The notes under the pieces were generated by a model. The model was not told where the DNA came from, did no database searches, and worked only from the letters and a program-made list of their open reading frames with translations. From an uncultured virus (IMG/VR IMGVR_UViG_3300025773_000001) (Duplodnaviria > Heunggongvirae > Uroviricota > Caudoviricetes), in IMG/VR virus record IMGVR_UViG_3300025773_000001: DNA of 20,000 nucleotides. One strand, written 5' to 3'. Both the position numbers and the translations under genes were made by a program. Positions 799 through 13,074 of this stretch are shown here, piece after piece. The number at the start of each line of letters is the position of its first letter. Position 1 is the first letter of the stretch.

Positions 799-3426
799 AT
801 GGCTACTAATATAGACAAATCACTTTACTCTGACATGCAGGGCACAGATCCAAGTCATGTTGACGAACCAATTGAGATTGAAGTTGTTGATCCAGAGGCG
901 GTCAAGATTCATGCAGGGGACTTGGAGATGGAGATCAAGCCAGACGGCGAAGGCAATGATTTCTATAAAAATTTAGCAGAAGAAATTCCAGAGTCTGTCA
1001 TGGGATCTTTAGCCAACGATTTGGCAAACGATATTGAGAATGATAAAAATTCCCGCAAAGAATGGGAGAAAGCATATGTAATGGGGCTCAAGCTTTTGGG
1101 ACTCCAATACGAAGAGAGAACGGAGCCTTGGAACGGAGCATCAGGTGTCTTCCACCCAATGATTACTGAAGCCGTAGTGCGATTCCAAAGTGAAACGATC
1201 ACCGAGATGTTTCCCGCCCAAGGCCCCGTTCGCACTAAGATATTAGGTAAAGAAACGCCAGCCAAGAAAGAATCTGCCATCCGGGTTGAGGATGACATGA
1301 ACTACGAGTTGACTGAGGTGATGGTGGAGTTTAGACCCGAACATGAGCGCATGTTGTGGTCCCTTCCAGCAACCGGTTCAGCGTTCAAAAAAGTGTATGA
1401 TGACATCACTTTAGGGCGCCAAACATCTATGTTTGTACCTGCGGAAGATATGATTTTGCCTTACGGTACGACCGATATGGACACTTGCTACCGCATGACG
1501 CACGTGATGCGCAAGACTAAGAATGAAATTTTAAAATTGCAAAAGGCGGGTTTTTACCTAGATTTTGAATTACCTGACGCTACGCAGTTAAGAGATGAGA
1601 TTCAAAAAGCCAAAGATCAAGAAACTGGATTCAACGATTTAAACGATGATCGTTATGTTATTTATGAAGTTCACGCTGACTTAGATTTAAAAGGCTATGA
1701 AGATGTAAACGACAAAGGTGAAGAAACTGGCATTGCACTTCCATATGTGGTAACCTTAATCAAAGGTAGTAATAACGTACTGTCCGTACGCCGCAACTGG
1801 AAGGAAGATGATGAAAACAGACTTAAGCGACAACACTTTGTCCACTACCAATACATCCCAGGATTTGGAGCCTATGGCTTCGGACTCTTCCATCTTATCG
1901 GTGGCTTCGCAAAATCCGCCACCTCGATTATGCGTCAACTGGTCGACGCAGGAACTTTATCTAACCTCCCCGGAGGACTTAAATCGCGTGGCCTTCGCAT
2001 TAAAGGTGATGACACGCCCATTGCACCAGGAGAATTCCGCGACGTTGATATTGCGTCGGGTCCGCTAAGAGATAACATTTTACCGCTCCCATATAAGGAG
2101 CCTAGTGCAGTTTTAGCCGGATTATTAGACAAAATTGTCGAAGAGGGGCGTAGATTTGCCGCTACTGCAGATATGCAAATTAGCGACATGTCCAGCCAAG
2201 CACCTGTTGGCACAACGCTCGCTTTGTTAGAAAGACAACTTAAAGTTATGTCGGCTGTTCAAGCCCGCATGCACTACACATTCAAACAAGAATTAAAACT
2301 TCTTGCCGCGCTAATTAAAGAAGACACACCTGTTAACTACGAGTATGAGCCTGAGTACGGGTCTAAAACAGCTAAACAAGATGATTACGACAACGTAGAC
2401 ATTATCCCTGTCAGCGACCCCAATGCAGCGACTATGTCGCAACGTGTTGTTCAGTACCAAGCTGTGATTCAAATGGCACAGATGGCGCCTGATATTTACG
2501 ATTTGCCAGAGTTGCACAGACGCATGCTTGAAGTAATGGGCATCAAGGGTGCGGACAAACTCGTACCTTTACCAGACGACATTAAGCCAAGCAATCCAGT
2601 ATCTGAGAACATCTCCATACTTAAGATGGAGCCGGTTAAAGCGTTTGAGTATCAAGATCACGAGTCACATATTAAAGTGCACATGGCTGCTATGCAGGAT
2701 CCACTGATTATGCAGTTGATAGGTCAGAATCCCAATGCACCTAAGATTCAAGGCGCGATGACGGCGCACATTGCTGAACACGTTGGTTTAGAGTACAAGA
2801 AACGTATTGAAGCGCAAATGGGCATGGCGATTCCTCCAAATGACGAAGACCACAAGATTTCTCCACAGGTCGAGTATCAGATGTCACAAGCCATGGCGCA
2901 AGCAGCTCAAGCGGTTCTTCAACAACATCAACAGCAGGCTCAACAACAGCAGGCTCAACAGCAACAACAAGATCCGATGTTTCAGTTACAACAGCAAGAA
3001 TTGCAGATTCGTCAAAAAGAAGTTGACATTAAAGCGCAAGAAGTACAGGCTAAAGCAGCTCAGGCGCAGGCCAACACGCAGCTTAAAGCCGAGGAGTTTA
3101 AAGCACGTCAAGACATGGAAGGGCAGAAAATACAAGTTAACGCAATGGAGAAAGCGGGTCGTCTGCACATGGACGATAAACGCATCCAAGTTGACGCAAT
3201 GCACAAGGCAGGAATGCTCCATACTGACAATAAGCGTATTCAAATTGACGCGCTCAACAAGGCTGGGCAATTCCAAGAAAAACGTAAAGATCGTGCGGCG
3301 GACTTGTACAAACACAAAAAAGGACTGGACCACTCTGGCTATGAGAGCGACGTCCAGCGTATGCACGAACAAGAGATGCAAGCTAATCAGCCTACCCCAC
3401 AACCCAAGGAGAAACCAACTAAATGA
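799..3426 (+). CDS. Portal protein (P22-like) with long Q-rich helical C-terminus
   Basis: 875 aa, directly after terL, with RBS TAAGGA. Motifs HPMITEAVVRFQ, GSAFKKVY, FGLFHLIGG and LVDAGTLSNLPGG. The Q-rich C-terminus resembles a portal barrel. Confidence 0.88.
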   Translation: MATNIDKSLYSDMQGTDPSHVDEPIEIEVVDPEAVKIHAGDLEMEIKPDGEGNDFYKNLAEEIPESVMGSLANDLANDIENDKNSRKEWEKAYVMGLKLLGLQYEERTEPWNGASGVFHPMITEAVVRFQSETITEMFPAQGPVRTKILGKETPAKKESAIRVEDDMNYELTEVMVEFRPEHERMLWSLPATGSAFKKVYDDITLGRQTSMFVPAEDMILPYGTTDMDTCYRMTHVMRKTKNEILKLQKAGFYLDFELPDATQLRDEIQKAKDQETGFNDLNDDRYVIYEVHADLDLKGYEDVNDKGEETGIALPYVVTLIKGSNNVLSVRRNWKEDDENRLKRQHFVHYQYIPGFGAYGFGLFHLIGGFAKSATSIMRQLVDAGTLSNLPGGLKSRGLRIKGDDTPIAPGEFRDVDIASGPLRDNILPLPYKEPSAVLAGLLDKIVEEGRRFAATADMQISDMSSQAPVGTTLALLERQLKVMSAVQARMHYTFKQELKLLAALIKEDTPVNYEYEPEYGSKTAKQDDYDNVDIIPVSDPNAATMSQRVVQYQAVIQMAQMAPDIYDLPELHRRMLEVMGIKGADKLVPLPDDIKPSNPVSENISILKMEPVKAFEYQDHESHIKVHMAAMQDPLIMQLIGQNPNAPKIQGAMTAHIAEHVGLEYKKRIEAQMGMAIPPNDEDHKISPQVEYQMSQAMAQAAQAVLQQHQQQAQQQQAQQQQQDPMFQLQQQELQIRQKEVDIKAQEVQAKAAQAQANTQLKAEEFKARQDMEGQKIQVNAMEKAGRLHMDDKRIQVDAMHKAGMLHTDNKRIQIDALNKAGQFQEKRKDRAADLYKHKKGLDHSGYESDVQRMHEQEMQANQPTPQPKEKPTK
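2920..2970 (+). repeat. Coding poly-Gln tract (CAA/CAG) in portal
   Basis: QQHQQQAQQQQAQQQQQ: 14 Gln in 17 codons. Confidence 0.9.
3127..3273 (+). repeat. About 3 degenerate 54-bp (18-aa) tandem repeats in portal C-terminus
   Basis: KIQVNAMEKAGRLHMDDK / RIQVDAMHKAGMLHTDNK / RIQIDALNKAGQF, with units starting at 3127, 3181 and 3235. Confidence 0.9.
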
Positions 3427-6405: not shown

Positions 6406-7308
6406 ATGGCTATTTCACGCGCACAACTATTGAAGGAATTGCTCCCAGGATTGAACGCACTGTTCGGACTTGAGTACGCAAGATACGGCGAAGAGCACAA
6501 AGAAATCTACGAAACAGAGACTTCTGAGCGTTCATTCGAAGAAGAGACAAAACTGTCAGGTTTCTCTGCAGCACCAGTCAAGAACGAGGGCTCAGCTCTT
6601 GCTTATGACAATGCTCAGGAAGCTTGGACAGCTCGCTACAACCACGAGACAATCGCTCTTGGCTTCTCAATCACCGAAGAGGCGATTGAAGATAACTTGT
6701 ATGACTCTTTGTCAGCACGTTATACCAAGGCTCTTGCTCGCGCTATGGCTTACACCAAGCAGGTTAAAGCAGCTTCAGTTTTGAACAACGGTTATAACGC
6801 TGCCTACACTGGCGGTGACGGACAAGCTCTGTTCTCTACAGCTCACCCATTAGTCAATGGCGGTACAAACGCCAACACATTCACAACTCCTTCCGATTTG
6901 AACGAGACTTCCTTAGAAGCCGCCGTTATCCAGATCGCTGCTTGGACAGACGAGCGTGGACTTTTGATCGCTGCTAAGCCTAAGAAACTTATTGTTCCCC
7001 CATCATTAATGTTCGTTGCAACTCGTCTCCTCGAGACAGAATTGCGCGTTGGTACAAACAACAACGACATTAACGCGATCAAGAACAACGGAGCTATTCC
7101 TGAAGGCTACACCGTTAACCACTTCTTGACATCAACCAACACATGGTTCCTGACAACTGACGTGCCAAACGGTCTTAAGCACTTCGAGCGTATTCCACTA
7201 CAAAATTCCATGGATGGTGATTTTGATACGGGGAACGTGCGTTACAAATCTAGAGAGCGTTACAGCTTCGGTTGGAGCGATCCATTAGGTATCTTTAGTT
7301 CATATTAA
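6406..7308 (+). CDS. Major capsid protein (HK97 fold, Mu gpT-like family)
   Basis: MAISRAQLLKELLPGLNALFG, GGDGQALFSTAHP, PKKLIVPP and RERYSFGWSDP motifs. RBS AAGGAG, strong codon bias, followed by a terminator. Confidence 0.92.
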   Translation: MAISRAQLLKELLPGLNALFGLEYARYGEEHKEIYETETSERSFEEETKLSGFSAAPVKNEGSALAYDNAQEAWTARYNHETIALGFSITEEAIEDNLYDSLSARYTKALARAMAYTKQVKAASVLNNGYNAAYTGGDGQALFSTAHPLVNGGTNANTFTTPSDLNETSLEAAVIQIAAWTDERGLLIAAKPKKLIVPPSLMFVATRLLETELRVGTNNNDINAIKNNGAIPEGYTVNHFLTSTNTWFLTTDVPNGLKHFERIPLQNSMDGDFDTGNVRYKSRERYSFGWSDPLGIFSSY

Positions 7309-7336: not shown

Positions 7337-7362
7337 AAAGGCCCCCACAAGGGGCCTTTTTT
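7337..7362 (+). terminator. Rho-independent terminator after capsid gene
   Basis: AAAGGCCCC-cacaa-GGGGCCTTT followed by further T residues. Confidence 0.9.
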
Positions 7363-7458: not shown

Positions 7459-8199
7459 ATGTTTTATGTTTATGTGTATCGTGATCCAAGAGCTACCAAA
7501 CATCAACAACCGGTCTACGTAGGTAAAGGGACAGGCGACAGAGATTTGTCCCATTGGTCTAGGGGGTCTCACAATAAGCCTTTGCAAGATTTTTTATCGC
7601 ATCTTCGCGGTTTAAATTTAACACCAATATGTGATCGAGTTTTTGAGACCCCGGATGAGCAAGCAGCTTTTGTTAAAGAAATTGAACTTATAAAACTTTA
7701 CGGACGCAGAGACTTAAAACAAGGTCCACTGTTTAATTTAACGGATGGTGGTGAAGGTCCGACAGGGCATGTTAGAACTGATGAACAAAAAGCCAACGAT
7801 GGGCGTTTTACCAAAGAACATTGGCAAGATCCAGAATACCGCGCCAAAGTAGTAGCCGGGCAAATCAAAGCGCAAAACACTCCAGAAGCCCTTGAAACCA
7901 AGTCAGTTAACTCTAAAAAACTTTGGGCAGCCCAAGGTGACACCTTAGCTAAAAGCATCAAGGAAGCGCGTAATACAGAAGAATCTAAAGCTAAAACAAG
8001 CGCTCAAGCAAAAGCGCAGTGGGCTGACCCAGAATACGCGGCTAAACAAACCGCCAACAATAAAGAGATTGCTAACCGTGAAGAAGTCAAAGCTGCTAAG
8101 AAAGCTGCGGCTAAAGCGCTATGGGCTGACCCTGTGTGGAAAGCTAAAATGATGGAAGCAAGAAAAAAGAAAAAACTTGTTGACACACCCCAAAATTAG
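7459..8199 (+). CDS. Free-standing GIY-YIG (LEM-3-like) homing endonuclease with helical repeat C-terminus
   Basis: FYVYVYRDPR ... PVYVGKGTGDR (GIY-YIG variant), E..LIKLYGR and LFNLTDGGEG. Basic C-terminal W-x-D-P repeats resemble NUMOD3-type DNA-binding modules. Confidence 0.85.
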   Translation: MFYVYVYRDPRATKHQQPVYVGKGTGDRDLSHWSRGSHNKPLQDFLSHLRGLNLTPICDRVFETPDEQAAFVKEIELIKLYGRRDLKQGPLFNLTDGGEGPTGHVRTDEQKANDGRFTKEHWQDPEYRAKVVAGQIKAQNTPEALETKSVNSKKLWAAQGDTLAKSIKEARNTEESKAKTSAQAKAQWADPEYAAKQTANNKEIANREEVKAAKKAAAKALWADPVWKAKMMEARKKKKLVDTPQN

Positions 8200-8207
8200 T
8201 GTATATT
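8180..8207 (+). promoter_or_regulatory. Sigma70-like promoter for downstream structural genes
   Basis: Perfect TTGACA (8180-8185), 16-bp spacer, TATATT (8202-8207). The -35 lies inside the last codons of the endonuclease gene. Confidence 0.65.
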
Positions 8208-8211
8208 AGTG

Positions 8212-8287
8212 GCATCTGGGAATTCACTCTTGTTGCCACTGGCCCAGCAGACGATGCAACGATTAACAAGAGGCTTTTGCATAAGGA
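8212..8287 (+). ncRNA. Candidate structured cis-regulatory RNA leader (interlocking helices)
   Basis: CTGGG(8216-20)/CCCAG(8243-47), CTCTTGTT(8227-34)/AACAAGAG(8265-72) and ATGCAA(8254-59)/TTGCAT(8277-82), ending directly at RBS AAGGA. Confidence 0.5.
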
Positions 8288-8296
8288 CTAAAAATC

Positions 8297-9016
8297 ATGG
8301 GACGCAGTACATTTGAAGGACCAATCATATCGGGCGACAACCGTTTTGGCGCTTTGCGCGATATTGGTTACACAGTTTTAGAGCAAGACTGCTACATTGA
8401 TCTCTCCAACACTACTGTTGGTACTGCTGGTTACAGCGGTGGATCTGGTCAATTTGTTTGGGGTAACAACATCCCTAACTTGAACGGCACTGTTTATACT
8501 CCTTCTAGCACATACAGTGCTAACGGTCCAACGACTCAAACAATCCCTGCGGACGCGTCTACACAGGTGTATCGTGGCGTGGTAATGTATTTACCAATTA
8601 ATAGCCAGATTCTCGACATCATTGTTGACTATCCTTTGGCAATTACTGGTGAGTCCGGCGCAACACTTTCTAACACAAGCGTGTTTGTTTCTAACGGCTA
8701 TACAGCTGCAGCAGGCACACCTGCTTACGCAACAGCGGTTATTTCTTCAAGCACAGGCGTTGGAACTGCTGGTCGTTTGACAACAACATACACAGGTACT
8801 AACTTGTTGAACATGTTGGCTACTACTTCTGACATTCAGAATCCAACACTCGGTGCTAACCCATCGTTTTTGTCTCAGATAGTATTCACGTTGTCTATCA
8901 CTGGTACAAGCGTTGCAGCTCCTACTGGCGGTAAGTTGAACTTTATTGTTCGCTACGCTCAGAATGACAACAACATTGGTACTTTGACAACTTACCCATA
9001 CGGTAACTTAGATTAA
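8297..9016 (+). CDS. Putative virion structural protein
   Basis: N-terminal STFEGPIISG resembles the TTFSGPV motif of post-capsid genes in related phages. T/S/G-rich beta composition, YLPINSQILDIIVD, RBS AAGGA. Confidence 0.7.
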   Translation: MGRSTFEGPIISGDNRFGALRDIGYTVLEQDCYIDLSNTTVGTAGYSGGSGQFVWGNNIPNLNGTVYTPSSTYSANGPTTQTIPADASTQVYRGVVMYLPINSQILDIIVDYPLAITGESGATLSNTSVFVSNGYTAAAGTPAYATAVISSSTGVGTAGRLTTTYTGTNLLNMLATTSDIQNPTLGANPSFLSQIVFTLSITGTSVAAPTGGKLNFIVRYAQNDNNIGTLTTYPYGNLD

Positions 9017-9021
9017 TCCCC

Positions 9022-9045
9022 TGGGGGCTTCGGCCCCCATTTCTT
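9022..9045 (+). terminator. GC hairpin with cUUCGg tetraloop, probable (leaky) terminator
   Basis: TGGGGGC-TTCG-GCCCCCA followed by TTTCTT. Confidence 0.75.
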
Positions 9046-12645: not shown

Positions 12646-13074
12646 ATGGGTAATCGGTTTTCATCAGGCAAGAACTCAATTGCCGAGTGTGATCGGTGTG
12701 GGTTTCAATTCAAACTGCGTGAACTTAAAAAAGAAGTCATCAAGACCAAAACGTATGACCTCAAAGTTTGCCCGCAGTGTTGGGATCCAGATCAGCCACA
12801 GTTGCAGCTTGGTATGTACCCGGTTGATGACCCACAGGGCGTTAGAGATCCAAGACCAGATACAACTTACATCACGTCTGGTCGTAACGGTTTGCAGGTA
12901 CAACAAGGAAACAGTTCCAGTGTTTTGCAAAATGGTGAGAATGAAGGAGGTAGCCGAATTATTCAATGGGGGTGGAATCCTGTTGGTGGTTCGGAATTTT
13001 TTGATGCAGCCCTTACGCCAAACAATTTGGCTTTGACCGTTGCAATTGGTACAGTTACAATCGTTACAACGTAG
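12646..13074 (+). CDS. Protein with N-terminal C4 zinc-finger-like motif
   Basis: ECDRCGF ... VCPQCWDPDQPQL ... DPRPD. Confidence 0.78.
   Translation: MGNRFSSGKNSIAECDRCGFQFKLRELKKEVIKTKTYDLKVCPQCWDPDQPQLQLGMYPVDDPQGVRDPRPDTTYITSGRNGLQVQQGNSSSVLQNGENEGGSRIIQWGWNPVGGSEFFDAALTPNNLALTVAIGTVTIVTT

Follow-up and report, generated by a model that had tools for sequence, protein, structure and literature searches.

A conserved pseudoknotted RNA leader ahead of a probable capsid cement gene of uncultured phages

Fold and covariation of the leader

The 20,000-nucleotide (nt) stretch of DNA analysed here (the window), from an uncultured virus of the Caudoviricetes (IMG/VR record IMGVR_UViG_3300025773_000001), carries the head and tail genes of a phage as one module, all of them on the + strand and mostly abutting. 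The gene at 8297..9016 (+), which encodes a beta-sandwich protein of 239 amino acids (aa), is set apart by a 97-nt gap ahead of it. An earlier reading of this DNA (the original prediction) had called a leader of such length exceptional in this setting, which the abutting of most window genes bears out, and had proposed that it forms a novel structured RNA. We find that the gap holds a structured RNA leader, conserved among relatives and reaching as far as the ribosome-binding site of the gene.

The fold spans base +3 of the probable transcript to the Shine-Dalgarno (SD) sequence and packs six helices, all on the + strand, into ~70 nt (the first ~72 bases of the mRNA). Helix b, in which CTCTTGTT(G) at 8227-8235 pairs with (T)AACAAGAG at 8264-8272 (8 Watson-Crick pairs and G8235-U8264), closes a three-way junction bearing the mini-hairpins d and e. 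Hairpin d (8239..8250) has the stem CUG 8239-8241/CAG 8248-8250 and a 6-nt loop (8242-8247) carrying the 3' strand of helix a, which ties the 5' end to this loop (CTGGG 8216-8220 with CCCAG 8243-8247). Hairpin e (8252..8261; stem C8252-G8261, G8253-C8260) presents the 6-nt loop AUGCAA (8254-8259), and hairpin f (8274..8285; stem CUU 8274-8276/AAG 8283-8285) the 6-nt loop UUGCAU (8277-8282). These two loops are the 5' and 3' strands of helix c (ATGCAA 8254-8259 with TTGCAT 8277-8282), which is thus a kiss of the e loop with the f loop. The contacts cross one another, a crossing b and d, and c crossing b and e. The SD sequence AAGGA (8283..8287) lies directly 3' of helix c with its first three bases inside stem f, and the leader ends at 8296, immediately before the start ATG at 8297. 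Very little of the unpaired sequence is constrained. The junction adenines between b and d (8238) and between d and e (8251) are present in all 100 of 100 aligned leaders, and an invariant A and a U (91/100) at 8262..8263 separate e from the 3' strand of b; of the unpaired bases upstream of the SD, only A8238, A8251, A8262 and U8263 reach 90% conservation.

Helices a, b and c are found in the sequence where the original prediction had placed them. The interlocked, kissing topology that it proposed stands overall, but b is a closing stem and not the loop-loop contact it was taken for, the tertiary contacts are a and c, and hairpins d, e and f had been missed. RNAalifold, given no more than a MAFFT alignment of 71 leaders, predicts b, d, e and f. 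Crude energies are -10.1 kcal/mol for the nested part, -6.7 for a and -4.6 for c, as against -15.7 for the best fold restricted to nested pairs, and on these rough values the full knot appears energetically plausible. The nested folding of 8206-8310 is unremarkable relative to shuffled sequences (minimum free energy z-score 0.38), a score that is uninformative here because the pairs cross.

The relatives of the leader come from uncultured phages and comprise 132 distinct leaders in total. A scan of viral-contig proteins with the 239-aa product gave 70 loci, and the leader is present in 60 of the 64 that have at least 88 nt upstream; in the other four, and in the shorter locus L035, a different endonuclease gene ends against the start codon. 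When the protein scan was repeated with more distant homologues, 79 of 80 loci matched covariance model R1 right before the gene, the 80th having no upstream DNA. Within a shorter branch of the family (140-170 aa) only 3 of 80 loci match R1, and none of the 77 loci outside the M1 group (window-type leaders) does; a scan with one of these three shorter proteins led to a divergent subfamily, M1b. A DNA pattern scan that fixes helix c by design returned 119 matches, comprising 59 full leaders and 60 chance matches without the upstream half. All of the variation in c and most of that in a comes from protein-found loci, not from those found by the DNA pattern. The leader occurs once in the window (94.9 bits; next best 12.7) and once in each of the five virus records searched.

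Covariation supports all six helices. In the MAFFT alignment of 71 leaders, 98.7% of the cells in 26 pairs can pair, compared with 88.0 ± 0.4% in shuffles, and 15 of the 26 pairs change on both sides, a number matched in 0 of 500 shuffles. An alignment of 100 leaders was made to model R2, which encodes b, d, e and f and leaves out a and c, and this alignment is biased towards the encoded helices. Over its 29 pairs, 98.1% of cells are paired (88.0 ± 0.3% when shuffled) and 21 pairs show two-sided changes (0/500 shuffles), whereas the paired fraction is 33.8-45.7% in controls whose partner columns were displaced by 1-3 positions. The two-sided changes fall in every helix (b 9/9, d 2/4, e 2/2, a 2/5, c 4/6 and f 2/3), and helix a is paired in 99.8% of its cells; in the 71-leader alignment, too, all nine pairs of b change on both sides. 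Alignments A7 and A8 shift five divergent leaders (L048 type, L271, L272) by one column in c, and these are counted as unpaired there, yet they pair in the grammar scan described next; the MAFFT alignment A6 (115 leaders), in which the 5' GGG is misplaced, was left out of the counts.

A positional grammar demanding all six helices fits 128 of the 132 distinct leaders but only 7 of 2640 shuffles, and two of its four failures result from the trimming of the leaders. Through matched changes in these 132 leaders, the originally predicted helices a, b and c are all kept. Helix b is by far the most variable, with 79 haplotypes, followed by a (7), d (6), and e, c and f (5 each). Helix a occurs as CUGGG/CCCAG, CUAGG/CCUAG, CCGGG/CCCGG, CCAGG/CCUGG and CGGGG/CCCCG, among others, and stem d as CUG/CAG, CCC/GGG, CCU/AGG, CCG/CGG, CUU/AAG and CAG/CUG. 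Both pairs of stem e change on both sides, from CG..CG to CA..UG and UG..CA. The kiss is preserved as AUGCAA/UUGCAU, UGCAAU/AUUGCA, CAUAAA/UUUAUG, CAUAUA/UAUAUG and CAUAGA/UCUAUG. Stem f occurs as CUU/AAG, CUU/AGG, CUC/GAG (L203, L227, L231), CCU/AGG (L190) and ACU/AGG, the SD variants GAGG and AGGG accompanying the matching 5' strands CUC and CCU. Frequent G-U pairs, such as the one that ends helix b in 74 of 100 leaders, assign the structure to the + strand. This is an intricate small RNA fold from abundant uncultured lake phages, with natural variation enough to guide probing and structural work.

Some further features of individual leaders can be recorded here. A GC-rich distant homologue (L390; 49% protein identity to L270) has, ~90 nt 5' of the gene, a leader in which a, b and d are recognisable by eye, along with a kiss of only 4 bp (GCAC/GUGC); hairpins e and f are not clearly discernible, and the leader may represent an intermediate. 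The public gene call P0020, for a homologue, begins at the AUG in the e loop and continues across the leader, so that ...LLHKESN precedes the true methionine, a case that illustrates how automatic gene calling can absorb the leader RNA into the cement open reading frame (ORF). As a conserved upstream ORF this e-loop AUG was rejected, being lost in other helix c haplotypes. A pairing of a junction GCCA with the start region was likewise discarded, many leaders having GGA at that place.

The transcription unit and its protein product

A sigma70-type promoter precedes the leader at 8180..8207 (+), with TTGACA at 8180-8185, a 16-nt spacer and TATATT at 8202-8207; at 11 of 12 positions it is the best match of this type in the window. 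We stacked 110 distinct upstream regions without gaps, anchored at the first base of the leader. The -10 box lies at a fixed distance (TATA(T/A)T at -12 to -7; TAnnnT in 96/110 regions) and is accompanied by a -35 box with TTG at -34 to -32 (TTG-type in 80/110). Position +1 is A in 95 of the 110 and position -1 a pyrimidine in 102. From these conserved boxes, the pyrimidine at -1 and the A at +1 we infer that the transcript starts at A8214 (+), 7 nt past the -10 box and two bases 5' of helix a. The same stack bears on two competing helices of the original prediction, 8212-16/8253-57 and 8208-14/8234-40. Both exist in the window sequence, but they are not conserved across the 110 regions, in which the bases at -6 to -1 of the probable start vary freely, and we have rejected them as conserved features.

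The 239-aa product has no family in Pfam or PHROG and no sequence match in the PDB, whilst a profile search of 1.84 billion representatives found 115 proteins at E <= 0.001. Its AlphaFold (AF2) model (mean confidence, pLDDT, 81) shows a beta-sandwich fold and an N-terminal arm that is disordered but conserved. Foldseek gave no match against the PDB at E <= 0.001. Among the top 6 matches from VIA-align, four are phage capsid or cement chains, with middling Z scores: Pam1 (7eel_H, Z 7.2), GP4 (8h89_J, 6.5), the KHP40 cement protein (7dou_4, 6.4) and BPP-1 (3j4u_H, 5.7). Matches in BFVD are uncharacterised phage proteins and one labelled 'structural protein'. Because of these fold matches and the place of the gene right after the capsid gene, we regard the product as a probable cement or decoration protein of the capsid with a jelly-roll fold. 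No known RNA-binding domain was found in it with Pfam, and no RNA-binding feature by structure comparison.

Upstream in the window lie the portal gene (799-3426, +), a scaffold-like gene on the same strand between it and the capsid gene, and the gene for a Mu gpT-like major capsid protein (6406..7308, +; Pfam PF25209 Phage_capsid_4 5.2e-15 and PF10124 Mu-like_gpT 1.7e-11; PHROG major head protein). The capsid gene is followed by a terminator-like hairpin (7337..7359, +; 9-bp stem with 6 GC pairs, T run). Between this and the promoter is a putative homing endonuclease gene (7459..8199, +; PHROG phrog_314 5.1e-09), whose last codons overlap the -35 box; its product has no match in a Pfam search, and by eye its N-terminus is GIY-YIG-like. 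A second terminator-like hairpin (9022..9039, +; 7-bp stem with 6 GC pairs, T run) ends the unit, and other virion genes lie past it without an obvious promoter. Having its own promoter, leader and terminator, gene 8297 is therefore a separate, one-gene transcription unit. A virion gene run as a promoter-to-terminator unit with dedicated RNA control is an unstudied layer in the regulation of phage head assembly.

The leader goes with the cement gene and not with the capsid gene, since in the window the homing-endonuclease gene sits between the two. Freestanding genes of this endonuclease-like kind occur exactly between the capsid and cement genes (window 7459-8199; L014 1914-2501), and in the five loci noted above the endonuclease gene ends directly against the start of the cement gene. 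These neighbouring endonucleases may have the conserved leader DNA as a target.

Relation to RF03012 and other known RNAs

That the leader belongs to no known family, as originally proposed, agrees with an Rfam 15 scan of the window, which gave no match at the gathering score. A search of 8150-8350 with E up to 10 returned only a chance microRNA match (E 0.43), and no ribozyme, exoribonuclease-resistant RNA (xrRNA) or riboswitch family in Rfam matches the window. Full-text literature searches found no description of the motif. It is a new RNA motif with strong support.

The closest counterpart is RF03012 (Mu-gpT-DE), an Rfam entry of type 'sRNA' with no assigned function. RF03012 matched 5 of 20 sources among the loci with shorter homologues (M2) at 52-73 bits (gathering score 49 bits), and in the same scan it matched none of seven M1/M1b loci. 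In its Rfam alignment a closing stem CCUG/CAGG overlaps the SD and encloses a single hairpin; the model covers both the SD and the AUG. The two RNAs occupy the same niche: each follows a Mu gpT-like capsid gene and immediately precedes a member of the same cement-type gene family. The capsid protein encoded at 6406-7308 hits PF10124, so an RF03012-type upstream context is present in the window, with the endonuclease gene intervening. The window protein and the homologues preceded by RF03012 share the N-terminus M-x-x-T-F-S/E-G-P-I. Both RNAs begin right after a -10 box, have their 5' end tied up (in RF03012 by pairing with bases that overlap the SD), involve the SD and contain a small hairpin flanked by GA...AC. 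They differ in complexity: RF03012 consists of one closing stem and one hairpin, and the window motif combines a three-way junction and three mini-hairpins with a pseudoknot at the 5' end and a loop-loop kiss. No homology between them is detectable by either covariance model. Given the same niche but no RF03012 match, we therefore read the window motif as a new, more elaborate counterpart of RF03012.

This comparison also gives RF03012 a context. It appears to be a 5' leader belonging to a cement-type gene and not an element of the upstream capsid gene, and both RNAs would then be leaders of one capsid-cement gene family that tie their 5' end to the SD. In five loci (L273, L276, L280, L281 and L304) RF03012 lies ~50 nt ahead of the gene start, and its end falls on the start codon of a homologue of 144-154 aa. 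Across 17 distinct RF03012-type leaders (L273-L349) a conserved hexamer of the internal loop, mostly UAGCCA, complements the start region UGGCUA (AUG-GCU-A). The complementarity extends over 6 nt in nine leaders, over 5 nt in three and over 4 nt in five, and in one leader it takes the form CCCA/UGGG; such a loop pairing may additionally mask the start codon. Within 100 nt upstream of the homologues L285-L349 there are at least three more conserved leader types, with the groups L286/L289, L285/L288 and L293/L294, and several of these have a hairpin flanked by GAC...GAC.

RF03012 itself reportedly originates from the Weinberg et al. 2017 survey. A term search of the main text of PMC5737381 found no mention of it, and PMC7657543 only lists it. 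A 2023 catalogue built on the same viral collection (Fremin et al., PMC10690425) reports 8495 unnamed candidate RNAs and re-found RF03012 six times; the window motif may already be contained there, unnamed.

Individual elements of the fold have parallels among well-known RNAs. The HIV TAR-TAR* and ColE1 RNA I/II complexes likewise join two hairpins through full pairing of their 6-nt loops, but the kiss described here is intramolecular, its stems are of 2-3 bp and one of them is built from SD bases. Flavivirus xrRNAs share the three-way junction and the pseudoknots that tie in the 5' end and the 3' flank, but show neither a sequence nor a model match to the window motif.

Possible functions of the leader

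As read from sequence, the leader most likely sets the amount of cement protein made. The covariation of the SD with the 5' strand of f implies that the element is concerned with translation initiation, and this in turn makes antitermination or a free RNA less likely. Of the functions put forward in the original prediction (translational switch, protein-binding autoregulatory element, small ribozyme, structural RNA), a role in translation accordingly fits best, whilst the ribozyme and the free structural RNA have found no support. We tentatively prefer a reading in which the leader is a constitutive, cis-acting cap and throttle with no small-molecule ligand, although we would not put it at even chances. 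With only two free 5' bases, the message would be shielded from decay that depends on the 5' end. The SD would be half-masked in stem f, which would be stable only while the e-f kiss holds, and the 30S subunit would have to melt f, and perhaps c, to initiate. The message would then persist for long and be translated at a set, throttled rate, which would suit a protein required in capsid-like amounts, and no trans-acting partner would be needed.

Several observations weigh against this proposal. Both the leader RNA and its 5' end are deduced from DNA sequence. Contigs in two lake metatranscriptomes span the leaders of relatives, but no start, strand or level can be derived from them, and they prove neither the start site nor transcription because one also includes the -10 region upstream of the leader. 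Stem f has only 3 bp and its matched changes come from 4 leaders. A half-masked SD is odd for a high-copy protein and favours a regulated over a constitutive element. The leader is dispensable, given that in five related loci another endonuclease gene has replaced promoter and leader together. Helices a and c, finally, vary far less in sequence than helix b (7 and 5 haplotypes, compared with 79), and something could recognise them; this objection is softened by the consideration that a tertiary helix of 5-6 bp tolerates intermediates poorly.

Recognition by a protein is at the centre of an alternative that we regard as quite possible, if short of probable, by analogy with known systems: the fold would be an operator, bound by a phage protein such as unassembled cement protein, in feedback, or by an activator that opens a masked start site. 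T4 gp32 and ribosomal proteins are precedents for the former, and Mu Com, which activates the mom mRNA, for the latter. The near-invariance of a, c and the three junction adenines while b drifts would suit a binding site, as would the inclusion of the SD in the structure, and homologous genes of other lineages have other conserved leaders, RF03012 included, as autoregulated ribosomal-protein leaders do. The strong host-type promoter would moreover fire early unless translation were restrained. The autoregulatory leader pseudoknots of T4 gene 32 and of the E. coli S15 and S4 (alpha-operon) leaders resemble the present leader in lying at or next to the ribosome-binding site of the regulated gene and acting on translation initiation. 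These leaders, however, bind a nucleic-acid-binding protein encoded downstream, whereas the window product looks like a capsid-binding jelly roll; such a cement protein would bind capsid protein, no RNA-binding feature is seen in it and no candidate regulator has been identified. Nor does the slow change of a and c call for a partner, short tertiary helices tolerating single mismatches badly. A small molecule, an ion such as Mg2+ or temperature might instead set the e-f kiss and so open or close the SD, which we consider improbable. A complex pseudoknotted fold on the SD with an invariant three-adenine junction is suggestive of such a sensor, and in the preQ1-II, SAM-II/V and guanidine-II riboswitches a tertiary contact next to or including the SD governs ribosome access, guanidine-II using kissing hairpins beside it. 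The window motif departs from these in lacking a match to any riboswitch family and a link to a metabolic gene, its sole associated gene encoding a virion protein. Its four conserved unpaired bases would be a poor fit to a metabolite pocket, and inspection by eye revealed neither a conserved alternative pairing nor a conserved anti-SD, the pyrimidine runs in b not being conserved.

Functions away from translation initiation appear less probable again. The strong terminator at 9022, beyond which virion genes lack an obvious promoter, might call for a processive antiterminator; the compact double pseudoknot is ribozyme-like in size, and the filing of RF03012 as an sRNA would be in keeping with a stable small RNA. 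The structure includes the SD, and its fixed join to the SD points to translation. Cleavage 2 nt from the start site would be purposeless, and no ribozyme family in Rfam matches, although a new class is conceivable. Conservation at the level of DNA, for instance as a homing endonuclease target with no RNA structure at all, is least likely of these readings and very unlikely indeed. Endonuclease genes do occur at exactly this spot, one of them standing in place of promoter and leader in 5 loci, but matched changes in six helices and strand-specific G-U pairs would not be expected of a DNA site, and the covariation brings this explanation close to refutation.

The knot could also be a switch that couples cement synthesis to the supply of capsids, with the e-f kiss held or broken by a host signal or by a phage protein, most attractively the unassembled cement protein; we think this possible but rather unlikely. 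If true, the switch would be an assembly-sensing translational feedback, of a kind not described for capsid decoration proteins, and Mu-gpT-DE, an orphan motif that many ocean phages carry, would share it in a simpler form.

Cultured phage records gave neither a DNA nor a protein match. A 20-mer scan of bacterial genomes yielded three contigs, two of which fail model R1 (one of them, L356, is 67% GC). The third holds one true leader copy (95.4 bits; L355/L358) on a 17-kb contig binned with a metagenome-assembled genome of Candidatus Nanopelagicaceae, and the window leader has a similar GC content (0.44). Such binning is at most a weak hint of the host and may be an artefact. Elsewhere in the window, amid the tail genes, a 142-aa ORF (12646-13074) contains two CxxC pairs and by eye resembles a zinc ribbon; it has a weak PHROG match to a family with no assigned function.

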